Position numbers and translations under genes: made by a program. Below are positions 1 to 13,484 of a stretch of 64,000 nucleotides of DNA, piece by piece. This stretch comes from an uncultured Bacteroidales bacterium (lineage in GTDB: Bacteria > Bacteroidota > Bacteroidia > Bacteroidales > UBA932). A model generated the notes under the pieces. The model saw nothing but the letters and a program-made list of their open reading frames with translations, did not search any database and was not told where the DNA came from. The DNA lies in the NCBI GenBank assembly GCA_947588835.1, contig CANPZS010000005.1, forward strand, positions 6,741 through 70,740. Reading direction: 5' to 3'. The first letter of the stretch is position 1; every line of letters begins with the position of its first letter.

Positions 1-593
1 TGGCATCTATACTGTTTTAAATAATTAATATGTTCTGCTGTAATCAGTGTTGCATTTGTGGTGAAATCTGCTATAAGCTCAATATCTTTTTCTGCGCAGA
101 ACTCCCTGGCATAATCAAGCAACTGTTTGATCCCGTCAAAACAAAGAAAAGGTTCCCCTCCAAAGAATCCTAACTTTAGTGTTGAAAAAGGAGTATTTAT
201 ATAATGCAGAAATATATTTCTTTTAATTGCGTCAACAACTCTCTGTTCCAGTCTGCTTCCTACAATTTTATTTTCATAGCAATACCAACAATTTAGATTA
301 CAATCAAGAGACGTATTTACAACAACATTGTAAAGATCGGTACCCTCTACCATTTTTTCTTTTTGGACAAGTACATATTGATACTCATCAAAGTCATCTG
401 CAATAAGAAATTTACCTAATGTTAATTTACTGAATAACTCTTTATTTAGTGTCTCTAATTTTTCTATCTCACATTGGGAATACAAATCATGACATCTTTC
501 ATCAAGCAATAGAAAAGTATTACTTAATGCATTATAATGAAGATAATAACCTTGCGCTATTTCTTCACAAAATTGATATCTTGAAATCTTCAT
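1..593 (-). CDS. Radical SAM peptide maturase (SPASM/twitch type likely); 5' part only, runs off the window start; not in the ORF track
   Basis: Manual translation from ATG at 593: MKISRYQFCEEIAQGYYLHYNALSNTFLLLD...VVNTSLDCNLNCWYCYE...LGFFGGEPFL...DFTTNATLI. Contains the CxxxCxxC motif (nt 279-302), GGEP and TTNG-like motifs. Frame is open to base 1. Confidence 0.92.
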   Translation of the reverse strand, partial: MKISRYQFCEEIAQGYYLHYNALSNTFLLLDERCHDLYSQCEIEKLETLNKELFSKLTLGKFLIADDFDEYQYVLVQKEKMVEGTDLYNVVVNTSLDCNLNCWYCYENKIVGSRLEQRVVDAIKRNIFLHYINTPFSTLKLGFFGGEPFLCFDGIKQLLDYAREFCAEKDIELIADFTTNATLITAEHINYLKQYRC

Positions 594-648: not shown

Positions 649-918
649 TTACGGTTGATCAGGTTTACTTACCACGCCCGGATCAATTGCACCGCAATAT
701 CCTGAAGCATTGTTGATCCCATTACAACGGCCTGAACCATTGTTGATCGTACCACAAGACCCACCGCCATTGTTCACACCACTACAAGTGCCATTGCCAT
801 TGTTTGTTGCTTCTTCATCAAGACCTGCGTTGCCTCCAACAACGAGAAGCATCTCGCTCTCCTGCATGACTTCCACAATCTGAAGCGGAAGATCCATCAA
901 CTTAGAAGAGTTTTTCAT
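649..918 (-). CDS. GG-leader RiPP precursor peptide with four 10-aa NNGxGxC repeats
   Basis: Leader ends MQESEMLLVVGG. Core is TNNGNGTCSG/VNNGGGSCGT/INNGSGRCNG/INNASGYCGA-ID. Lies 55 nt upstream of a co-oriented rSAM gene. Confidence 0.88.
   Translation of the reverse strand: MKNSSKLMDLPLQIVEVMQESEMLLVVGGNAGLDEEATNNGNGTCSGVNNGGGSCGTINNGSGRCNGINNASGYCGAIDPGVVSKPDQP
688..807 (-). repeat. Four degenerate 30-bp tandem repeats encoding the precursor core
   Basis: CATTGTT recurs on the + strand at 708, 738, 768 and 798 (30-nt period). Confidence 0.9.
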
Positions 919-1423: not shown

Positions 1424-1660
1424 ATGAAAAAGTACTCATTTTTAGCATTTGACATGCTGCGAAAGGAAGAGATTGCTTCCATTAAAGGAGGTAAAGCCAG
1501 TGACGTTAAGAAGTGTGGTTGCACCTGTGTGGGCCCACTTACGCCTATGCAGGTGGGCATTAACGCAGTAGATCGTGAAACCGATTCTTCGGATGAAGAA
1601 TGCAACGATTGTGGAGCTACTAATGCGCATCGCGCAACAAACGGACTTATACAACAATAA
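1424..1660 (+). CDS. GG-Bacteroidales family RiPP precursor (TIGR04149-like)
   Basis: Leader LRKEEIASIKGG, followed by CGCTC (CxCxC) and CNDCGATN; cognate rSAM and pseudo-rSAM genes lie downstream. Confidence 0.85.
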   Translation: MKKYSFLAFDMLRKEEIASIKGGKASDVKKCGCTCVGPLTPMQVGINAVDRETDSSDEECNDCGATNAHRATNGLIQQ

Positions 1661-1672
1661 AGCAAGTTTAAA

Positions 1673-4027
1673 ATGGCTGCCCGTCTGAAAATATTGTGCA
1701 TTGCCGCACTCTTGTCACTGTCCGTGACCGTCAACGCACAGGTGACTGACGGGCAGCTTGACTCAGTCATCAGGAACCTCAACCTGAAGGAAGTCGTCGT
1801 GACGGCAAAGAAAATCAAACAGGCCGGCGACACGATATCCTATTCGGCCGCCACCTACGCGGACAAAAACGACAAGACGCTTGAAGACCTGCTTCGCAAG
1901 ATGCCGGGAATCGAAGTCATGTCCGATGGACAGATCACCTACAACGGCCAGTGGATAAACGAGTTCTATATCGAAGGCCTCGACATGCTCGGCAGCAATT
2001 ACGGCGTGGCCACAAAAAATATAGACGTCCGCGACATAGGCTCCGTCCAGGTGCTCCAGAACCATCAGGACGTGAAGCTGCTCCAAGGAGTGAAAAACGG
2101 CGGCGCCCCGGCCATGAACATCAAACTGAAGAAAAACGCCCTCGGCATCTGGTCGTCCACGCTTCAGGCGGCGTTAGGAAGCCAGCCGCATCCGGCCTGG
2201 GACGCCTCCGCCGCCCTGATGAATTTCCGGCGCACGGCCCAGAACATCTCCGTCTACAAGACCAACAACATCGGCAATCCCCTGCGTCAGGATGTAAACG
2301 CCACGGCCACATTCAGTTCATCGTTCGGCACCGGACTTCTCTTTCCCGATTCCCCGGGCCTTGACGACAGGTACGCATACCGCAACAATTCACACAGCCT
2401 GTCGGTCAATCAGCTTTTCAAACTGGACGAGGACAAGACATTGTCCTTCAATCTGAATTATTTCTTCGACAAAGAAAAACGGGATGCGGCCGAGCAGACC
2501 TCCTACCTTGCCGACAGCCTGTCGCGGTATGTGGTGGATGAATCCGACCGGACCGACATGCGGCAGCATTTCGTGGGGACGCACGCCGTCTACAAGCTGA
2601 ACGGACGGAAACGCTATCTTAAGAACACCTTCGCGGCAAGCGCCTCTTTCCCTAACGGAAGCGGCACGGTCAACGATCTGATACGCCAGCGCTTCTCAGG
2701 GCATTCCATCAATGTCGACGACGTGCTGAAAATAAATTACAAAACGGCGAAGAACGGCATCGGCGAAACGGCCCTCCATGTCAGCTACAATGACAGACAA
2801 GGAACGCTGGACATAGACGGCCGCGGAACGTCGCAGACGGTTGGCAGGCGCAATCTCATCGCCGACGGTTCCGTCCATGTCGCGGCTGCGGCCGTGCCGC
2901 ATTTCATGTTCAACCTCAACTGCGACCTCGACGCCCGGTGGCAGCAGGCCGAGACCGCTTCGGACATGTCAGGAGTCCCCGAATCCGGGAGCCAGAGCAT
3001 CTGGCGCGCAGGTGCGCACATAACCCCGAAATTCCTTCTGCATTTCGGACAACGGTTCCAATGGCTCATTTACATACCCGCCGGCTTCGTATATTATGCT
3101 TCCGCCAACGGATCCTGGGAATACGACAGAACGTTCTTTTCCTTAAGGCCATATACCAATATTACGCTCAAGCCTTCGGACCGCCTGTCCTTCTCGCTGA
3201 CGTCGACCTGCGAGGAATCCATGCCCGACCCGCTTTCGCTCATGGTACAGCGGCGATACACCGACTACCGCACCGCGGTCTCCAATCCCTACCGTCTTGA
3301 AGCCAACATCGACAGGACGGTGAAGACGTCTTTGAACGCAAGCTACACAAACGTGCTGGACATGATCTTCGGAGGCCTGACCCTCACACACGTCTACTCG
3401 CGCAACAGCATCTCCGACGGGTACCGGATAACCGGCGATGTCATCGACTACGTACGGCTGCCCTATGCCACGGGCGTCAATATATGGCAGGGCGACCAGA
3501 CCTTTTCCAAAGGCTTTTTCAAATGGACTGCCAAGATAAGCGAATCGTTCTGCGTCGGTACGAGCCAAAGTGAATTTTACGTCGACGGCGCCATGCACAG
3601 GGGACGGAGCGACTATCTGCGTGCGACGGTCGCCTTCAACGCCGCCTTCGCCAGCTGGATCGCCTTTGACGCTTCAAACCGCTTCTCGCTGTCCAGAACG
3701 TTCACCGACGGAACCTCCAACGGAGGGGCGAAGCACACCTTCTCCAATACGGCCTCTCTCGTGCTTTGGCCTTGCAGGCGGCTCAGCATCAAGCCGTCCG
3801 CGATGTTCTATTACAACGACTATTCAACGAGCTACAGGAGCAACGTCTTCCTCAACTGCGACATGGAATACACCACAGGAAACCTCATTCTGTATCTCCA
3901 ATGCAGCAATCTACTGGACAGCAAAGTCTTCCGCAGCTTCAACGACAACGGAATCATACAACGCTCAAGCCAGTACATGCTCCGCGGACGGACCGTCCTG
4001 TTCGGGGTAAGGTTCAGAATTACATGA
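1673..4027 (+). CDS. Outer-membrane beta-barrel protein with TonB-dependent-receptor-like plug
   Basis: Signal peptide; LKEVVVTA; EDLLRKMPGIEV...FYIEGLD plug-like segment; amphipathic beta C-terminus (VLFGVRFRIT). Confidence 0.75.
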   Translation: MAARLKILCIAALLSLSVTVNAQVTDGQLDSVIRNLNLKEVVVTAKKIKQAGDTISYSAATYADKNDKTLEDLLRKMPGIEVMSDGQITYNGQWINEFYIEGLDMLGSNYGVATKNIDVRDIGSVQVLQNHQDVKLLQGVKNGGAPAMNIKLKKNALGIWSSTLQAALGSQPHPAWDASAALMNFRRTAQNISVYKTNNIGNPLRQDVNATATFSSSFGTGLLFPDSPGLDDRYAYRNNSHSLSVNQLFKLDEDKTLSFNLNYFFDKEKRDAAEQTSYLADSLSRYVVDESDRTDMRQHFVGTHAVYKLNGRKRYLKNTFAASASFPNGSGTVNDLIRQRFSGHSINVDDVLKINYKTAKNGIGETALHVSYNDRQGTLDIDGRGTSQTVGRRNLIADGSVHVAAAAVPHFMFNLNCDLDARWQQAETASDMSGVPESGSQSIWRAGAHITPKFLLHFGQRFQWLIYIPAGFVYYASANGSWEYDRTFFSLRPYTNITLKPSDRLSFSLTSTCEESMPDPLSLMVQRRYTDYRTAVSNPYRLEANIDRTVKTSLNASYTNVLDMIFGGLTLTHVYSRNSISDGYRITGDVIDYVRLPYATGVNIWQGDQTFSKGFFKWTAKISESFCVGTSQSEFYVDGAMHRGRSDYLRATVAFNAAFASWIAFDASNRFSLSRTFTDGTSNGGAKHTFSNTASLVLWPCRRLSIKPSAMFYYNDYSTSYRSNVFLNCDMEYTTGNLILYLQCSNLLDSKVFRSFNDNGIIQRSSQYMLRGRTVLFGVRFRIT

Positions 4028-4060
4028 CATTAAAATATATCAACCAAAAACATCATAGAT

Positions 4061-4936
4061 ATGAAAAAGACTCTTATTGCATTGGCGGCCGCCATGATGC
4101 TCACATGCGCAAACGCATATTCCCAGATCACCGTGTCCTACGCGATGGATACTCCCTCGTTCACTCTTGCCCATGAAGACACCGACAGATATCAGACGCT
4201 CGACACCTGTTATCTCACGATTACCTATCGGTTCAGGTACAAGGCCACAGAAAAAGACGACTCCCTCAGCCGCGAAGACCTTCTGGACCTCCAGCTCGGA
4301 CGAAGGTACAACGCCTTCTTCAGCCGCAATCTCCGTGAACTCGACATCCAGAACACAAAAGACTTCAAGACCACTATGCAGTTTACGCCCGTCCCCAGCG
4401 ATTATGTCGGCTTCGACCTCCTCATCAGCCACGGCGATTCCACGACGGCCGTCACCAACCGTATCCCCTACACTACACAGGTGATCGAATATAAAGAACA
4501 TACTCCCCTCCCGGCGTGGACATACGTTCCCGAAGAAATCGACACGGTGATGGGCTACCCCTGCCATGTCGCAAAATGCGATTACGGGGGCAGGGAATGG
4601 AAAGCCTGTTACACCAACGACATCCCGCTGCCGTACGGACCGTGGAAACTCAACGGAGTCAAGGGTCTGGTCCTCAAAGCCGAGGATGCCGGACATGAGT
4701 TCGTATTCGAAGCCGAAGGCCTCACCCAGAATCCGCAGCCGATAATCCGCTACGACTGGAACAGAAAGACCATGGACAAAGACGAATGGGCACGGTTCGA
4801 GCGCGATATGTACAAAAACGCCGGAGCGTTCGTCCGCAACACCGGCGCCCGCATCCTTATCATGGACAATAGCGAAAAAGGCTTCCATGTCTTGAACGAG
4901 GCCTGGTCGGAATATTATAATCCCTTAGAAAAATAA
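4061..4936 (+). CDS. GLPGLI family protein
   Basis: Signal peptide; YPCHVAKCDYGGREWKACYTNDIPLPYGPWKLNGVKGLVL matches the GLPGLI C-terminal signature. Confidence 0.85.
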   Translation: MKKTLIALAAAMMLTCANAYSQITVSYAMDTPSFTLAHEDTDRYQTLDTCYLTITYRFRYKATEKDDSLSREDLLDLQLGRRYNAFFSRNLRELDIQNTKDFKTTMQFTPVPSDYVGFDLLISHGDSTTAVTNRIPYTTQVIEYKEHTPLPAWTYVPEEIDTVMGYPCHVAKCDYGGREWKACYTNDIPLPYGPWKLNGVKGLVLKAEDAGHEFVFEAEGLTQNPQPIIRYDWNRKTMDKDEWARFERDMYKNAGAFVRNTGARILIMDNSEKGFHVLNEAWSEYYNPLEK

Positions 4937-4937
4937 T

Positions 4938-6344
4938 ATGGAAACAATATCGGCGGCGTCAGGCAATAATTATATATATGAACAAAGGACGGGGTATGTT
5001 TCCCTCGTCCCAAACTCGTATGTGTCCCACGGGAATCATTCTTCATATTATTCAGAAAAAATTAAATATTTAAAGCATTTTGGACTTATTTCGGCAGATT
5101 CGGAACCGGAATACAGACTATTAGAAAAACAAGATATTGAAGACGCCCTGATTAATACACATCAAATAATACTCGAAGTAACGGATAAATGTAACCTTGA
5201 TTGTTATTATTGTGGTTATGGGCACTTCTACGATAATTATAATGCCAGAGAGAATATAGATATGTCATTTGATGTTTTTAAGACATTGTATGATCATCTT
5301 AATAAAATTTGGGAAAGCAATAATAACAAAGGGTGTACGTATCTGCGTATTTCTTTTTATGGAGGAGAACCGTTGTGTAATTTTTCATTTATAAAGGAGG
5401 CTGTCGATTATACGAAACACAATCCTATTAAAAATAAAAGGATTGTTTTCTCAATGACGACAAATGCGGTTCTTTTGGATCGATACATGGAATTTCTTGT
5501 GGCCAACAATTTTGAGATTCTTATTAGTCTTGACGGAAACAAGTTCAACGATTCGTATAGGGTCTTTAAAAATGGTAAAAGTTCTTTTGATACAGTTATC
5601 GCAAATATTGATAAGCTTTATAGCTCTTATCCATCTTTTTTTGCGCGGAACGTGAAATTTAACAGTGTATTACATAATCGTAACTCGGTAAAGGATACAA
5701 ACTCTTTCATCTTTACAAGATATCAAAAATATCCAATGACAAATGAATTAAATGTTTTTGGGATTGCCAAGTCAAAACGTTCTGATTTCTTAAAGATATT
5801 TCACTCTAAAACAAAAGATTTTTCATTAATGACCGAAGATGAAAAAAAAGAGTATGAAAATCAATCTCCATTTATGTATCAATATAAGAGGTGGGCATTT
5901 AATACTCTTATGAAAACCTATTCCACAAATCTTTTAAATGCTCTGTCAGAGGATTATGTAAGTCCAAAAACTTCTATTAATCTCAAATTGCCGACCAAAA
6001 CATGCATACCTTTCTCACGGAAAATTTTTGTTTCTGTTAATGGCGATTTGTTTCCTTGTGAAAGAATTGGCAATGAATTTGATTTTGGGAGAATATATGA
6101 CGGTAAAGTTGAGATACATTTTGACAAGATAATAAGCCAATATAATCAATTGTTTGCAAAGTATACAAATATCTGCAATGGCTGCAAGGCTAAAGATTTT
6201 TGTTCTGTATGCATTGTGTCTGATATTAATGGATATGAGATTTGCAGCCGAACTAAACCTCGGAATATAGCAGAATTTATCTCGTTTTCTGAGATACACC
6301 CCGACATCCTTAAAAAAATCATCAAAACCGTATCAATTATTTAA
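4938..6344 (+). CDS. Radical SAM/SPASM peptide maturase, GG-Bacteroidales family (TIGR04148-like)
   Basis: CNLDCYYCGYG, FYGGEP, MTTNAVL, ISLDG; C-terminal CIPF...PCER...CNGC...CSVC auxiliary-cluster cysteines. Confidence 0.92.
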   Translation: METISAASGNNYIYEQRTGYVSLVPNSYVSHGNHSSYYSEKIKYLKHFGLISADSEPEYRLLEKQDIEDALINTHQIILEVTDKCNLDCYYCGYGHFYDNYNARENIDMSFDVFKTLYDHLNKIWESNNNKGCTYLRISFYGGEPLCNFSFIKEAVDYTKHNPIKNKRIVFSMTTNAVLLDRYMEFLVANNFEILISLDGNKFNDSYRVFKNGKSSFDTVIANIDKLYSSYPSFFARNVKFNSVLHNRNSVKDTNSFIFTRYQKYPMTNELNVFGIAKSKRSDFLKIFHSKTKDFSLMTEDEKKEYENQSPFMYQYKRWAFNTLMKTYSTNLLNALSEDYVSPKTSINLKLPTKTCIPFSRKIFVSVNGDLFPCERIGNEFDFGRIYDGKVEIHFDKIISQYNQLFAKYTNICNGCKAKDFCSVCIVSDINGYEICSRTKPRNIAEFISFSEIHPDILKKIIKTVSII

Positions 6345-6346
6345 TT

Positions 6347-7555
6347 ATGGGAGAATCGCTTTATTTCTACTTAGAACCTTATGTGTATGTAAAGAAGGGT
6401 GAAAAAGAACTGCTTATTGTCAATTTGCTTGATGATAAAGCAATTATATTTAAAGATTCCGCGTCAATTAAAATAGGGAATCTCTTGCTGTCATCACAAT
6501 ATAGAACGATAAAGATTACAGAAAACGACAAAAATATTCCCATAGTAATTAATGCTATAAAAAACTATATGGGGGACATCGTCTCTGCTATGGCACAGCC
6601 ACTGCAGTTTGATTCCGAGATTAATAATCTTTCAGGCATTGAGGCCTACAGAAAGGCTACTGTCTACTCCAAATACAACATCGGGGGATTCATCTCTAAT
6701 TGTACCATGTTTGTGGATATGAAAAACCAAGATAGCTATGACTATATTAAATTCATAACAGGAATTGAATCAACTCCTGAAAATGCTATTTATAATGCTT
6801 CTTTCAAAATGAATGAGGAAGATATAGACTATTACATTCAAGAACTGATTAAAATCAATCCCAACATTATACTAAATATCTGTGGTGTTAATCAGCATCT
6901 TTTTGATTATATTTCAAGTAATTATCCATCCACCATACTTAATCTTGTTATTTCATTACGGACTCTGCAATTATATCCCGACATACTTAATCGTATCAAG
7001 AAGAAAAAATTAAGATATACATTATTATTAGATTTATCTCATGACAATTATAATTGCTACATAAACGATGAACTATGTTCTATTTATGTCAAAGTCACGA
7101 ATGACAAAGATCTTTATAATGCTTATAATCTATCAGAAACAGGTTGTCAGGTTAAATTATGCCCTATCTTAACTTCGAAAAATAAAGATTTTATAAAATC
7201 TTTATTTTCAATATCGTACAAAGAATTGTTAAATATTAAAAATAAATATAGAACAATTAAAATTAACAACTTAATAAACAGTAATTTTTGGGGTAATATA
7301 TATCTTTTTCCGCAAGGAAAGGTTCGCTATTCATTGGGTTGCGGTCAATTAATTGAATTCCATCAACTTTATGAGAAGTACAAAAATGATTTTCTAAATG
7401 GCTCCTTTGAATGGACTTTTATTAGAAATTTCTCGAACTGCAGCACTTGTATATTTCAATATCTTTGTCCTTCGCCAAATTATATTGAAACACATCTAAG
7501 GGAGAAAAACCTAATCAAATGTTTAATATCCAAAGATGCAAAAGTTTCCTCATAA
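6347..7555 (+). CDS. Pseudo-rSAM protein (TIGR04150-like)
   Basis: YFYLEPYVYV N-terminus; no CxxxCxxC; retains C-terminal CSTCIFQYLCPSP; 2 nt after the rSAM gene. Confidence 0.8.
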   Translation: MGESLYFYLEPYVYVKKGEKELLIVNLLDDKAIIFKDSASIKIGNLLLSSQYRTIKITENDKNIPIVINAIKNYMGDIVSAMAQPLQFDSEINNLSGIEAYRKATVYSKYNIGGFISNCTMFVDMKNQDSYDYIKFITGIESTPENAIYNASFKMNEEDIDYYIQELIKINPNIILNICGVNQHLFDYISSNYPSTILNLVISLRTLQLYPDILNRIKKKKLRYTLLLDLSHDNYNCYINDELCSIYVKVTNDKDLYNAYNLSETGCQVKLCPILTSKNKDFIKSLFSISYKELLNIKNKYRTIKINNLINSNFWGNIYLFPQGKVRYSLGCGQLIEFHQLYEKYKNDFLNGSFEWTFIRNFSNCSTCIFQYLCPSPNYIETHLREKNLIKCLISKDAKVSS

Positions 7556-7689: not shown

Positions 7690-8091
7690 ATGAATAAATA
7701 TTGCTTCAAGGCAGTTCTTCTGCTTATTGGTATTTCTTCGTTAGCGGCATCTTGCACGAAAACAATTGTGGAAGACAATCCGGACTGGTGGACTTTCTCT
7801 ATAGAAAATCTATTGGACGAAAATGTTATCATCAGTGGGAGCGTCAATGAGAATCAGTTTTCCATAACGCTGTCTCCGAAAGAATCTTATTCTTATACTC
7901 AAGATATAAGGAGCGGTTCTATAGAGAATGGGAAAACAGCTATCTTTTTAGCGGCTTCAATAAAATTAACTGGAACAGCTGCAGGAACTGTAGAGTATCA
8001 GACGACAGCGGATTTTAAAAAGAAGTGGACAGAAGAAGATGAACATCAATTGGTATTCAAGATTAACGGTTCTCTTTTCCAAACCGAATGA
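7690..8091 (+). CDS. Lipoprotein of unknown function
   Basis: Lipobox LAASC after a basic/hydrophobic N-terminus; overlaps the next gene by 4 nt. Confidence 0.75.
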   Translation: MNKYCFKAVLLLIGISSLAASCTKTIVEDNPDWWTFSIENLLDENVIISGSVNENQFSITLSPKESYSYTQDIRSGSIENGKTAIFLAASIKLTGTAAGTVEYQTTADFKKKWTEEDEHQLVFKINGSLFQTE

Positions 8092-10217
8092 TTTACAAAA
8101 TTCGTGAAAAATTCGTTGTCCTTATCGTTTTATGTACGGCAAATCAACTGTCCGCACAAAGCGCCGACAGTCTTGATGTCGTTGATACATTGGACAATAG
8201 TATCATGACTCTGGATGAAGTCGTCGTTTCCGCGCCTTTAATCAGCCAGAACAAATACGGGAGCACCTATCTGATTACCGAGAGTCTGAGGGAAAAGGTC
8301 AGTTCTCCCGTTCAGATGTTGAATTACATTGACGGCGTGATATACAATGAGATTGACAATTCCGTCAAAGTCAGGACTGATTCGCGGGTGCTGCTGTCGG
8401 TCGACGGGATTGAGCGGGATCTCAATTACATTATGAGCCTGCCTCCTGCGCGTATAGCGAAAATAGAAATAAAGAACATACCCGAAGCGAAATATATCGC
8501 GGAAGGATATAAATATGTCATCAATTATAAATTGAAGAACGATTGGATCGGGCACTATTTATATGTGCAGAATTATGATATGCTGTCACCCGGCAACAAC
8601 GGGAAAAATGTCGTCGCGAATGAGCAGCCACGGATACAATACATGTTTACCGACAAGAAAATGGATTTTCATATAGGATATGGATTTGCGGACATTCATT
8701 GGAATTATCCCATATCATACGAAAAATCTTATTTCAACAAGATTGATGCCGCCTCCATCGAGGCCGGGCCAAAGAATCCTAACGACAATAACACAAATAT
8801 CGCACACAATCTTGCCGCCGGGATAGATTATCATATTTCACCCGGTCATACGATAGTGTGGAAAGCGAACTGGTTAAATTCCGATGCCGATCATATTGCA
8901 TCATATAATCGGCATGATGAACTTTCAGGCGGAACGTCATACGGCGAAACACAGCAGGACAAGTCCGATGATGAGGATTTCAGCACATCGCTCATATATA
9001 GAGGAATTATAAACGATAAGTGGACTTTATATTCGGCCGTCGGCTATAATTACATAGGACAGAGCACATTGAACAAATATGAGCAACTCGGCGGAGATAG
9101 CGGATATATTAGTGTGAGCAGATATGACAATCGGAAGAATTATGTACGGGGCGAAGCCGACGCGACATACAATGTCAATGACCGGCTGAGCTTCAATGCC
9201 GGCTACATAGGGACATGGAACGAATATCTCTCAAGACCGCTGAATTCTGATGGCGGGACATCACGGATCAATGAGAATCGGCAGCATGCGTATGCATATC
9301 TTGATTATTCTCCTGCTCCAAATGCGTTGCTTCACATGGGCGTGGGAGCCGAACGCATCAACAATGTCAGTAAATCATGGTATTGGCTTCCGCAAATGAC
9401 GTTCAGCTATGTCTTTTCGGAGAGCTCCCAATTGACGGTGGATTATTCGTCAAAGATAATATATCCAAAGATGTATCAGATTATTAAAACATCTTACGAT
9501 ATAGATGAGCATGTCGTTTTTAACGGGAATCCGGAATTGTCTCCTTCACGGGTCCATTCATTGTCCGTTCAAGGAACAGTCAAAGACAACCTTCTGGTGG
9601 GGGCGTCATACAACTATACCGACAATTATATAGCGGACTTATATACGGCCGACTCCGATAAAATAATAAAAAAATTTACAAATGCCGACAATCATTATTT
9701 CACAGGCTATATGGCCTATGATTGGAACATCACGGACAACATCTCATGGAGCAACATTGCGCAGGTCAGCTTTGAAGCCATATCCAATAATACATACAGG
9801 AAACAGTTCTACAACTTCTCGTTCAACAGCCAATTCAATTATTGGATAGACCCGATAAAGATGCAGACCTCCGTATCCTGGCAGCGCAATATGATAAAGG
9901 AACCTCTTCTTCAAGGCTGGAACAACATAGGACAGGATTATTGGATGCTGTCGCTGCAAAAAGGGTTTTGGAAGGACCGTATATATGCATCAATATCGTA
10001 TCTTCCTCCGATACATTTGGGAGTAAGGCCATTTCAATACAATGTCGTGGAAACCGACTTTTACAGACAGACCGTCAAACAAAACCTGAGGACGTATGAC
10101 AATATGGTCATGATCAGAATTCATTTCCGTTTATCTTCCGGCAGACAAAGGTCGTCAGACAGAGTTCCGGATTTCGAATTTGAAAATGAAGGGAAGAAAG
10201 ATAAAGGATTGCTTTAA
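8088..10217 (+). CDS. Outer-membrane beta-barrel family protein (plug + barrel)
   Basis: Signal peptide; LDEVVVSAP; LLSVDGIER...IAKIEI...VINYKLK plug-like region; FNGNPELSPS; beta-rich C-terminus. Confidence 0.75.
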   Translation: MIYKIREKFVVLIVLCTANQLSAQSADSLDVVDTLDNSIMTLDEVVVSAPLISQNKYGSTYLITESLREKVSSPVQMLNYIDGVIYNEIDNSVKVRTDSRVLLSVDGIERDLNYIMSLPPARIAKIEIKNIPEAKYIAEGYKYVINYKLKNDWIGHYLYVQNYDMLSPGNNGKNVVANEQPRIQYMFTDKKMDFHIGYGFADIHWNYPISYEKSYFNKIDAASIEAGPKNPNDNNTNIAHNLAAGIDYHISPGHTIVWKANWLNSDADHIASYNRHDELSGGTSYGETQQDKSDDEDFSTSLIYRGIINDKWTLYSAVGYNYIGQSTLNKYEQLGGDSGYISVSRYDNRKNYVRGEADATYNVNDRLSFNAGYIGTWNEYLSRPLNSDGGTSRINENRQHAYAYLDYSPAPNALLHMGVGAERINNVSKSWYWLPQMTFSYVFSESSQLTVDYSSKIIYPKMYQIIKTSYDIDEHVVFNGNPELSPSRVHSLSVQGTVKDNLLVGASYNYTDNYIADLYTADSDKIIKKFTNADNHYFTGYMAYDWNITDNISWSNIAQVSFEAISNNTYRKQFYNFSFNSQFNYWIDPIKMQTSVSWQRNMIKEPLLQGWNNIGQDYWMLSLQKGFWKDRIYASISYLPPIHLGVRPFQYNVVETDFYRQTVKQNLRTYDNMVMIRIHFRLSSGRQRSSDRVPDFEFENEGKKDKGLL

Positions 10218-10251: not shown

Positions 10252-10434
10252 ATGTCAACAAAGACTAATGAAAGACTTGATTTTCTCTCAGAAGCAGAGC
10301 AAGTCAAAGTAATGGGTGGCACTTCAGAGACATCATCTCTAGAGAGCGAAATTTTTATCTATATTGTAAAAAATTGCGGGTGGAAAGATTGTAAGAAAAT
10401 TTGTACAATCAATCCTATACCGTTTGATCGTTAA
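10252..10434 (+). CDS. Third GG-leader peptide (Ser/Thr-rich linker, 3-Cys core)
   Basis: Leader LSEAEQVKVMGG fits the double-Gly consensus; core TSETSSLESEIFIYIVKNCGWKDCKKICTINPIPFDR; AT-rich 5' leader. Confidence 0.7.
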   Translation: MSTKTNERLDFLSEAEQVKVMGGTSETSSLESEIFIYIVKNCGWKDCKKICTINPIPFDR

Positions 10435-11059: not shown

Positions 11060-13273
11060 TCAATTTCCAAGTTCAAGCTGATTCCTTACCAATGCATAAT
11101 ATTTTCCTTTCTTCGCCGTCAGTTCTTCGTGCGTGCCTGTTTCAACGATTTTTCCTTTATCCAAAACCACAATCTGATCGGCATTTCGGACGGTCGAAAG
11201 ACGATGCGCAACTATGACAACGGTTTTTCCTATATAGAAATCAGACAGGTTTTCGGTGATGATCCGTTCATTGCCGGCGTCAAGAGCATTGGTGGCCTCG
11301 TCCAGAAATACGAACATCGGGTTCTTGTACACCACGCGGGCTATCAGTATTCGCTGCCTCTGCCCCTGACTTATGCCCTGTCCATCCTGACCTATTATAG
11401 TATTGTAACCTAACGGAAGATCTTCTATATAATCGGCAATATTCGCAATGCGTGCGGCATAACGTATTCGTTCGATGTCGGGTTCATCATCGGACACGGC
11501 GATATTGCGGGCGATAGTGTCGGAGAAGAGATATCCTTCCTGCATAACGGCTCCGCATTGATTTCTCCACCAACTTAGATTGTATTCGTTCAGATTGCCG
11601 TCTCCGACCCGTATGCAGCCGCACGATGGTTCATAGAATCCCAGAAGCAATTTGACAAGGGTGGTCTTTCCGCTCCCGCTTGCACCTACGATTGCAGTTA
11701 CTTTCCCGTTGGGGATATATAGGTTGATGTCGGAAAGTACATCCTGCGGGCTATAGAGATCGTATTTGAAGCAAAGTCCTCCGATATTGATCGAGTGTCC
11801 CTTGGACGTATCCTCGGTATAACTATTGCGTGTCCTGCCGTCGTTTTCCTCGTCGGTTTCAGTATGTATCTCGTTCATGCGGTCAAGGCTGATGCTTACA
11901 TCTTGCCAAGAGTAAATGAACCGGATCAGCTGCTCCACGGGGCCGTTGAGTTGTCCGATAATGTATTGCACCGCCAGCATCATGCCCAATGTCATGTCGC
12001 CGTGTATCACAGCCGTAGCCGCAAGGACGGTAATAAGAATGTTTTTAACTTCATTGATGGTGATGCTGCCCGCCTGTTGTATCTGCTGCAGGTTGAGAGA
12101 CTGGAGATTGACTTTGAAGAGGTCAGCCTGCACATCCTCCCATTCCCAGCGTTTCCGCTGTTCGCAGCCTTGCAGTTTGATTTCCTGCATGCCATCAATA
12201 AGATGATAGGTCACATTGCGGTTCTTTCCGGCCTGTTCGAAATATTTATAGTCGAGCTGACGGCGTTTCTTGAGGAACAGAACGATCCAGCACGCATATA
12301 GCGATGTACCGATAAGGAAAATAAGGAATATAAGCGGATTGTAGACAGCCAGAACGACGCCGAACACAATAAATGTGAAAAATGAAAATAGTACGGTCAA
12401 GCTGCCTGATGTTAGGAACTGCTCCACTCGTCGGTGGTCTTCTATACGCTGCAGTAGGTCACCCATCAACTTTGTATCAAAGAATTTCATCGGCAGTTTC
12501 ATCAACTTGATGAAGAAATCGCTGATAAGTGAAATATTGATACGCGCAGATATATGAAGGAGTATTTTGGATCGGATAAACTCAATGGCGGTGCGGCTGA
12601 ATAAAAGCATCATTTCCGCCAGCAGTACCAGCCAGATAAAACTTACGTCTTTTCCGCCGATGCCCGTATCCACGATGGCCTGAGTCAGGAAAGGAAAAAC
12701 GAGCTGCAGAAGCGAGCCAAGTAAAAGACCCAATATCAGCTGAATGAAGAAACGGCTGTATTTTTTGAGATAACTCCATAAAAAACTTAGGCGGTTTTTT
12801 CCCGAATGCTGTTTATTGTCCATTTGCGAATGAAACGGTTCGGCAGGTTCAAGCAGCAGAACGATGCCTTTCTCTTCGCCGTCCGTTTGAGTGCTTGCCC
12901 AATGCTCGCAGAATTCCTCCTTGTCGTATGTCATCATTCCCTTTCCAGGGTCCGCGACATACACCGTATATCCGCCGTTACGATGTTTCCGGATTTTATG
13001 GACAACGACAAAATGATTTTGGTTCCAATGAACGATGCATGGCAATGGAGCATCGGACGTGAGTGTGACAAATGTAATTTTTCCGCCAAGGCTTTTCATT
13101 CCCATTGCCTCCGCCGCCTTGCCTATGCCTAAAAGAGAAACACCGTCTTTTCCAAGAGAACATAATTTTCTAATCTGGTTCATATCAGGCCGTTTCCCAA
13201 AAAAAGAGACGATCATTGCCAGACATGCGGCTCCACAGTCCATGGAATCAAATTGTTTTATCAGCCGTATCAT
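11060..13273 (-). CDS. Peptidase C39-containing ABC transporter (GG-leader processing and export)
   Basis: QFDSMDCGAACL (Cys), HWNQNHFVV (His), VADPG (Asp); TM domain; GASGSGKT, SQGQRQR, LDEATNALD. Start moved to ATG 13273. Confidence 0.95.
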   Translation of the reverse strand: MIRLIKQFDSMDCGAACLAMIVSFFGKRPDMNQIRKLCSLGKDGVSLLGIGKAAEAMGMKSLGGKITFVTLTSDAPLPCIVHWNQNHFVVVHKIRKHRNGGYTVYVADPGKGMMTYDKEEFCEHWASTQTDGEEKGIVLLLEPAEPFHSQMDNKQHSGKNRLSFLWSYLKKYSRFFIQLILGLLLGSLLQLVFPFLTQAIVDTGIGGKDVSFIWLVLLAEMMLLFSRTAIEFIRSKILLHISARINISLISDFFIKLMKLPMKFFDTKLMGDLLQRIEDHRRVEQFLTSGSLTVLFSFFTFIVFGVVLAVYNPLIFLIFLIGTSLYACWIVLFLKKRRQLDYKYFEQAGKNRNVTYHLIDGMQEIKLQGCEQRKRWEWEDVQADLFKVNLQSLNLQQIQQAGSITINEVKNILITVLAATAVIHGDMTLGMMLAVQYIIGQLNGPVEQLIRFIYSWQDVSISLDRMNEIHTETDEENDGRTRNSYTEDTSKGHSINIGGLCFKYDLYSPQDVLSDINLYIPNGKVTAIVGASGSGKTTLVKLLLGFYEPSCGCIRVGDGNLNEYNLSWWRNQCGAVMQEGYLFSDTIARNIAVSDDEPDIERIRYAARIANIADYIEDLPLGYNTIIGQDGQGISQGQRQRILIARVVYKNPMFVFLDEATNALDAGNERIITENLSDFYIGKTVVIVAHRLSTVRNADQIVVLDKGKIVETGTHEELTAKKGKYYALVRNQLELGN

Positions 13274-13484
13274 TCTGTAAGGTATTCTAACGTTTTTCTT
13301 CAGAACTCCGGCGGGAAAGCCATAAAAGTTCGTGGGCGGAACAAATGCAAGTGTTTTAGGCAAAATAAGATGAATTTTTTATTTTTCCAAATGTTTTAAG
13401 AAGTATTCAACAGCCATATAAAGAATTAAATTTGCTCCTGTTTCCAAAAGCCCTTATCTTAGCAGGTCATGAAAAAAGTTGTTT

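Follow-up and report, generated by a model that had tools for sequence, protein, structure and literature searches.

Tandem Asn-Asn-x-x-Gly-x-Cys units in a family of double-glycine-leader RiPP precursors encoded beside a radical-SAM maturase and an outer-membrane barrel in Bacteroidales

We analysed a 64,000-nucleotide stretch of DNA from an uncultured Bacteroidales bacterium (contig CANPZS010000005.1; G000:C5:6741-70740, hereafter the window) together with the adjoining 6.7 kb before its start. The open reading frame (ORF) at 649-918 on the minus strand encodes the precursor of a ribosomally made and post-translationally modified peptide (RiPP) with a double-glycine (GG) leader and four [T/V/P]-N-N-x-x-G-x-C units. 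The gene adjoins that of its own radical S-adenosylmethionine (rSAM)/SPASM maturase, which bears out the RiPP precursor function proposed in an initial annotation made from the DNA letters. Comparison of homologues indicates that [T/V/P]-N-N-x-x-G-x-C is the self-contained unit of the family, and that the Cys-x3-Asn/Asp register on which the initial annotation had built its rings, D79 included, is a by-product of the tandem 10-residue spacing. The precursor is organized as follows.

649..918, minus strand: precursor peptide gene, 89 aa plus stop codon (649-651), defined by the ORF, 101 homologues and 156 cluster representatives
832..918, minus strand: leader, residues 1-29, ending in the double-glycine sequence LLVVGG; GG28-29 invariant, L10/P11/E22 pattern conserved in two alignments
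652..831, minus strand: core, residues 30-89, in which a linker of 9 residues is followed by four decapeptide units and then by 14 residues of tail
784..804, minus strand: unit 1, N39-N40-G-N-G-T-C45; the first Cys has NN at -6/-5 in 83 of 91 cores
754..774, minus strand: unit 2, N49-N50-G-G-G-S-C55, from the position profile
724..744, minus strand: unit 3, N59-N60-G-S-G-R-C65, from the position profile
694..714, minus strand: unit 4, N69-N70-A-S-G-Y-C75; the tail after it, G-A-I-D79..., is not conserved

The minus-strand translation of 649-918 is MKNSSKLMDLPLQIVEVMQESEMLLVVGG (leader) followed by NAGLDEEATNNGNGTCSGVNNGGGSCGTINNGSGRCNGINNASGYCGAIDPGVVSKPDQP (core). As annotated, Cys residues fall at 45, 55, 65 and 75, and N49, N59, N69 and D79 each lie at +4 of one of them. 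The exact 30-bp period described for the DNA holds for the Cys codons, which lie precisely 30 nt apart (786-784, 756-754, 726-724 and 696-694), but the three 30-nt copies share 63-73% identity; the period is therefore exact while the repeat itself has diverged. Tandem Repeats Finder called no repeat in the interval 600-1000. The repeat architecture is not a chance arrangement, since it recurs in the homologues and cluster representatives listed above, and in an alignment of 64 sequences C45, C65, N40, N59 and GG28-29 were invariant. An ORF also runs on the opposite strand at 710-883 (plus), and the possibility that the precursor ORF is an artefact opposite to it was ruled out by conservation of the minus-strand product. 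Upstream of the precursor, the minus strand carries no exact Bacteroidetes -7 motif (TAnnTTTG). Two exact copies (1324 and 1351) do occur in the divergent, AT-rich intergenic region of 505 bp at 919-1423, and both face the plus-strand cluster.

A profile built from ten precursors recovered the 101 homologues. When 1.84 billion cluster representatives were searched with a 64-sequence profile, the 156 listed above were recovered, of which 95 scored E ≤ 1e-10. All precursor homologues were unnamed or annotated 'hypothetical', and neither NCBIfam nor Pfam held a model for the family. The leader-type model TIGR04149 matched 5 of 64 family members, weakly, and did not match the window precursor. Four weak profile matches (P0162, P0163, P0168 and P0188) were longer unrelated proteins with tandem repeats such as AAEGRCGYI, which look like low-complexity sequence rather than members of the family.

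To define the unit we compared a first set of 91 distinct cores containing 330 Cys and an enlarged set of 118 distinct cores of the same type. An NN pair preceded 302 of the 330 Cys (92%) at -6/-5, and Gly occupied -2 of about 92-93% of Cys. The number of Cys equalled the number of NNxxGxC units in 92 of the 118 cores, in which unit number spanned 2 to 6. The spacer from NN to Cys was four residues long in 214 of 225 cases and three in the other 11, all of these from cores with a 9-residue period. The spacer from Cys to the next NN was 3 residues in 200 cases, 4 in 18, and otherwise 2, 6 or 7, so that insertions were confined to this linker.

The two ends of the core differed. Asn lay at +4 of 68% of all Cys in the 91 cores and of 93% of internal Cys. 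At the last Cys, N or D occupied +4 in 10 of 91 cores in the first set and in 10 of 118 in the enlarged set, where the N+D background in tails is 11%; 45 of the 118 cores ended with fewer than four residues after this Cys, many of them as ...C-G. The initial annotation had made conservation of the +4 Asx in homologues a test of its proposal, and at the last Cys that residue is not kept. Its expectation that repeat number would vary around a fixed Cx3N register held for the number, whereas the register was lost at the terminal Cys. Nor is Cys-x3-Asn/Asp supported as the ring-defining unit, as NN precedes the first Cys in most cores and follows the last in 1 of 118.

Two related core types extend the comparison. 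One has a 9-residue period, [I/V]-N-N-x-x-x-C, and is found for example in locus L008, whose rSAM is 39% identical to that of the window. The other is N-N-G-x-G-C-x-C, some peptides of which consist of a single unit with nothing after it and no downstream Asn. A six-frame search of 400 Bacteroidales species for loci of this single-unit type returned the genome of the window and one weak match only. Across core types A, B and C, Asn was present at -5 in 95%, 87% and 100% and at +4 in 64%, 80% and 5%, respectively, making -5 the sole Asn offset common to all three. Discrimination between the registers rests on the two core ends, the indels and the single-unit relatives. Because the terminal +4 position is at background, many cores stop short of it, insertions fall in the linker only and single-unit relatives exist, the Cx3[N/D] spacing is read as a consequence of tandem repetition.

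The maturase gene and a stem-loop that separates it from the precursor lie immediately downstream on the same strand.

1..593, minus strand: N-terminal part of the gene for a maturase of RiPP recognition element (RRE)-rSAM-SPASM architecture; likely start ATG 593 (MKISRY), extending beyond the window to G000:C5:6038, 431 aa
608..637, minus strand: perfect stem-loop of 11 bp that separates the stop of the precursor from the start of the rSAM; ΔG -23.9 kcal/mol, z -5.3, equalled by none of 200 shuffled sequences

Pfam matched Radical_SAM and Fer4_12 in this protein. The CNLNCWYC (CX3CX2C) motif and seven C-terminal cysteines in the SPASM pattern CX9-15GX4C...CX2CX5CX3C...C (C317, C336, C377, C380, C386, C390 and C403) were invariant in 15 homologues. 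An AlphaFold2 model (predicted local distance difference test, pLDDT, 90.8) placed a beta3-alpha3 domain at the N terminus, with strands at 7-13, 16-21 and 26-31, helices at 32-40, 43-49 and 51-59, and pLDDT > 90. As modelled, this is an RRE-like peptide-docking domain. The best match in the PDB was CteB, both by sequence (6e-16) and by fold (template modelling (TM) score 0.65-0.68), aligned to full-length CteB, followed by TigE and anSME. We take the seven-Cys SPASM to resemble that of CteB rather than the fully ligated eight-Cys domain of anSME.

Curated family models placed the enzyme in no family at or above its NCBIfam cut-off. Its scores were 128.9 of 525 bits for TIGR04463, 125.8 of 600 for CefB (NF038107), 87.3 of 340 for PapB (NF047865), 67.7 of 425 for the SCIFF maturase (TIGR03974) and 55.6 of 300 for TIGR04148. 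The characterized families among the 25 best matches listed include several thioether formers, namely QhpD, PapB, the SCIFF maturase and RumMC. By these comparisons the protein is a peptide maturase of the rSAM/SPASM kind that belongs to no described family.

On the minus strand the order is precursor, stem-loop, rSAM gene, barrel gene and then the rpsL-rpsG-fusA operon. Six further Bacteroidales loci, L003-L008, keep the order precursor, hairpin, rSAM and a barrel of ~760 aa. They belong to Muribaculaceae, Parabacteroides, Bacteroides, Proteiniphilum acetatigenes (strain DSM 18083, L007) and one unclassified Bacteroidales, and identity to the window cassette is 39-58% for the rSAM and 30-40% for the barrel. 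Strong hairpins occupied the same position in each of these loci. The terminator scan called no canonical intrinsic terminator at 608-637, the T-tract rule being unmet; the stem-loop is probably an attenuator or stabilizer that sets the precursor:enzyme ratio, and suggests that more precursor than enzyme is made. No peptidase or ABC transporter was present within the L003-L008 cassettes. The rSAM was the most AT-rich cassette gene in every locus examined: 32.7% GC in the window cassette (C5:6038-7372), where the overlapping barrel gene (C5:3766-6054) has 53.3% and the housekeeping flank 50-59%, and 29-38% GC in L003-L008 whatever the GC content of the host.

More distant rSAM homologues, ~30% identical, adjoined other Cys/Asn-rich GG-leader peptides together with a barrel or a transporter of the C39-peptidase type described below. 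In locus L114 (G042:C112:535-711) the same leader was found with a homologous rSAM, the start of a barrel gene and a different core (...YNGVCFGTCNIYCPKTPTK), which indicates that the leader, enzyme and barrel form a chassis for varied Cys cores. Just upstream of the precursor in L005 (3309-3671) is a gene for a ~120-aa secreted DUF3244 protein (Pfam 1.5e-16); similar ORFs were seen in L008, L014, L024, L026, L027 and L029, and the gene is absent from the window cassette.

The third gene of the cassette lies outside the window.

C5:3766-6054, minus strand, outside the window: gene for a 762-aa outer-membrane barrel, overlapping the rSAM gene by 17 nt

Pfam identified OMP_b-brl_3 (7e-21) and an N-terminal CarboxypepD_reg domain in the barrel, and a Plug match stayed below threshold (16.6 of 23.9 bits). 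Its AlphaFold2 model (pLDDT 77.6) showed a signal peptide, a beta-sandwich, an alpha/beta domain at 120-220 and a large barrel, with the TonB-dependent transporters Cir, PirA, BtuB, ZnuD and OprC as best folds (TM 0.45-0.6). The most conserved stretch of the protein was the plug-like region. A search of PDB sequences with the barrel profile gave no match. TonB-dependent-transporter-like proteins import ligands, and candidate roles for the barrel are outer-membrane exit of the product, its re-uptake, or sensing. All three GG-leader peptides in the window have a neighbouring barrel (1673-4027, 8088-10217 and C5:3766-6054). To our knowledge none of the rSAM-RiPP systems characterized so far shows strict pairing with a TonB-type barrel, nor did the literature searched contain one.

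A candidate for leader removal and export is encoded elsewhere in the window.

11060..13363, minus strand: C39-peptidase ATP-binding cassette (ABC) transporter (PCAT); Pfam Peptidase_C39 (3e-30), ABC_membrane and ABC_tran

This was the sole full-length PCAT found in the 97.8%-complete assembly and lies about 10 kb from the precursor. We propose it as a candidate leader peptidase and exporter acting in trans on the precursor and on two other GG-leader peptides. Its island also holds those two further peptides, a TIGR04148 rSAM and a TIGR04150 pseudo-rSAM. A second C39 peptidase domain (G000:C60:8081-8437) sits in an open frame of just 185 aa and may be stand-alone or truncated. A second RiPP module at 1424-7555, divergent from the precursor, comprises a 78-aa GG-leader peptide, a barrel, a GLPGLI protein, an rSAM and a pseudo-rSAM; its rSAM scored 386 bits with TIGR04148, and the pseudo-rSAM is TIGR04150-like but below the cut-off. 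The third GG-leader peptide, of 60 aa, is at 10252-10434.

The host is a gut or rumen Bacteroidales, in keeping with the initial annotation: its EF-G is 90% identical to that of rumen Bacteroidales metagenome-assembled genomes and 85% identical to that of Candidatus Cryptobacteroides. Among 400 sampled Bacteroidales species the precursor profile found one further genome only, with a weak match and a different core, and it had no match in three congeners. The region upstream of rpsL in these three congeners and in one confamilial genome had no genes in common with the island and was distinct in each, so that no insertion boundary could be defined.

These observations can be combined in a provisional pathway. 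The leader would dock on the RRE of the rSAM, which would then introduce one cross-link per unit. Its donor would be the thiol of the Cys, which an auxiliary Fe-S cluster probably holds, as happens in CteB and NxxcB. As acceptor we propose a carbon radical upstream of the Cys but still inside its unit, an Asn from the NN pair being the likeliest residue to bear it. Each of the four thioether rings would then comprise six or seven residues, and the rings would follow one another in line along the product (-8 Da). The PCAT about 10 kb away would remove the leader after GG29 and export the peptide, and the barrel would work at the outer membrane in passage or re-uptake of the product. That the peptide is a genuine rSAM-modified RiPP with a Cys-centred modification we consider very likely. 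On balance a thioether is the probable form of the cross-link. Closure of the ring within the unit and upstream of the Cys is possible though somewhat short of probable, and an Asn specifically as the acceptor is a speculative assignment. Asn is favoured for this role because -5 is the one Asn offset that the three core types have in common. We advance only tentatively the arrangement that the family comparison suggests, in which every unit holds a single thioether ring that runs back from its Cys to a residue upstream, in the likeliest case an Asn, and so has the NxxcB orientation.

Several observations weigh against this arrangement. The NN pair could serve as a recognition or turn element instead of the acceptor, and the Gly at -2 is as conserved (93%) and a possible sactionine acceptor. 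In internal units Asn +4 is as frequent as Asn -6, being the same residue, and alone does not discriminate. A few sequences (P0004 and P0111) lack NN upstream of the first Cys and keep N at +4. The homologues were gathered with a profile built from the family, which favours the motif, although this bias does not create the asymmetry between the ends. Finally, no function can be transferred to the rSAM because it scores far below every curated cut-off.

The alternatives differ in where, and whether, the Cys residues are linked. The first is the register of the initial annotation, with PapB-like beta-thioethers C45-N49, C55-N59, C65-N69 and C75-D79. In PapB's substrate the Cys of six CX3D motifs are bonded to the Asp downstream, at its beta-carbon, and the enzyme accepts n = 0-6 (PMC9413430). 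The abundance of Asn at +4 of internal Cys, its presence in 80% of the 9-residue-period type and the two sequences without a first NN agree with such links. However, they would leave the last Cys with an Asx partner no more often than background, orphan the first NN in 83 of 91 cores, have to accommodate the insertions in the Cys-to-NN linker, and find no acceptor in single-unit NNGxGCxC peptides; the PapB model gave the maturase 87 of 340 bits. A PapB-like orientation is thus unlikely, and we regard this particular register as improbable. Thioethers of another topology have a somewhat better, though still small, chance. One possibility is a sactionine link to an alpha-carbon, whether that of Gly -2 or one elsewhere in the backbone; another is a nested or hairpin arrangement in which rings span units. 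Gly -2 is highly conserved, RumMC- and CcpM-type models are among the rSAM matches, and sequence-divergent rSAMs make Cys-Gly sactionines, as does StsB (PMC10288494). A ring from Cys to Gly -2 would be very small, however, and a Gly acceptor leaves the conservation of NN unexplained, while the free variation in unit number from 2 to 6 and the existence of single units indicate self-contained units rather than nested ones.

Chemistry other than thioether formation is unlikely but deserves more weight than either of these. The Cys could become thiooxazole-type heterocycles or formylglycine, epimerization or C-C links could occur elsewhere, or free thiols could bind metal in a metallophore-like peptide that the barrel re-imports. 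Work on a radical-SAM role in thio(seleno)oxazole formation is cited by PMC9413430, and anSME and geopeptide-type models also match the rSAM. Re-import would suit a plugged, TonB-dependent-transporter-like partner of an importer type, modelled as similar to Cir, BtuB, ZnuD and OprC and most conserved in its plug region, but no metal-related gene was seen in the cassette. Moreover, the closest solved enzyme, CteB, forms thioethers, and the seven-Cys SPASM is CteB-like and not of the fully ligated eight-Cys anSME kind. Excision of each decapeptide as a separate small (cyclic) peptide is very improbable: variable unit number and a conserved G(+2)-T(+3) between units recall some multi-core RiPPs, but apart from the PCAT in trans there is no protease in or beside the cassette in seven loci, and many cores end ...C-G without a flanking recognition sequence. 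Least credible of all is an unmodified peptide, a plain double-glycine bacteriocin or pheromone with disulfides whose neighbouring rSAM acts on another target. Against it, precursor and rSAM were adjacent in every locus examined, and the core type shifts as the rSAM diverges (58% to 39% to 30% identity).

The preferred arrangement, with the acceptor upstream of the Cys, is closest in orientation to the NxxcA/NxxcB system. In the beta-thioether that NxxcB forms, Cys is joined to the Asn at the third position upstream of it, and the enzyme tolerates other acceptors as well (PMC9389541). Both systems pair an rSAM/SPASM enzyme with an Asn upstream of the Cys, and this orientation is the one favoured by the comparative data on the window family. 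NxxC, however, is a single motif with Asn at -3, whereas the window family repeats its unit 2-6 times in tandem, placing Asn at -5/-6 and Gly at -2; in type A cores Asn was found at -3 in 9%, compared with 94-95% at -6/-5. NxxC also belongs to a streptococcal rSAM-RiPP network of Firmicutes (PMC9389541), with another leader type and no outer-membrane partner, and no NxxcB-type model was among the 25 best NCBIfam matches listed for the rSAM. Freyrasin (PapA/PapB) is a ranthipeptide, a class defined by rSAM-installed thioethers from Cys sulfur to a non-alpha carbon. With PapA/PapB the family has in common tandem short Cys motifs and one RRE-rSAM-SPASM enzyme, which in PapA closes each motif into a small thioether ring (PMC9413430), as is proposed here. 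The PapA acceptor is a downstream Asp/Glu (CX3D), in contrast to the unconserved terminal downstream Asx here, and PapB comes from a Gram-positive host with no barrel, unlike the barrel-encoding Bacteroidales cassette.

The remaining systems resemble the enzyme or the setting. CteB/SCIFF has the same RRE, rSAM and seven-Cys SPASM architecture and is the closest solved structure, but identity is 17%, and the SCIFF core and Cys-Thr gamma-thioether motif are absent here. The GG-Bacteroidales system (TIGR04148/TIGR04149/TIGR04150) comes from the same phylum, uses a double-glycine leader and is present as a complete copy at 1424-7555; the window cassette differs in having no pseudo-rSAM, and its rSAM and precursor fail TIGR04148 and TIGR04149. 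Of the curated rSAM models, CefB (Cys-every-fifth) and TIGR04463 scored highest, and the substrates of both families are periodic in Cys or rich in it, but the scores are far below cut-off, the enzyme is not a member, and the precursor is without an NCBIfam match. The literature search, limited to papers available without subscription, found no description of an NNxxGxC family. In the passages searched of a Bacteroidales RiPP-mining paper, the association of PCATs with GG motifs is noted and the NNxxGxC family was not met (PMC10352776).

Thioether peptides made by radical-SAM enzymes offer new enzyme chemistry as well as peptide-stapling tools, and we know of almost none characterized from Bacteroidota. 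The N-N-x-x-G-x-C motif is short, clean and repeatable, so that the rule for substrates could readily be tested; should the links prove to be Cys-Asn thioethers, the motif would be just as easily exploited for in-line multi-ring peptides. The family also illustrates that a +4 pairing in a tandem repeat can be a by-product of spacing, and that the true unit emerges from the ends of homologous cores and from their indels. The strict pairing with a barrel raises the question whether the peptides leave the cell, return to it, or both. A more speculative view, in which we place little confidence, is that these loci represent an undescribed RiPP class of gut and rumen Bacteroidales, in which one rSAM would close 2-6 self-contained Asn-x4-Cys rings, each with its acceptor on the upstream side of the donor and of a size seen neither in NxxC nor in freyrasin, and a dedicated TonB-type transporter would return the product or its cargo to the producer. 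If this is true, the product would be a signal or a scavenging molecule and not a bacteriocin.

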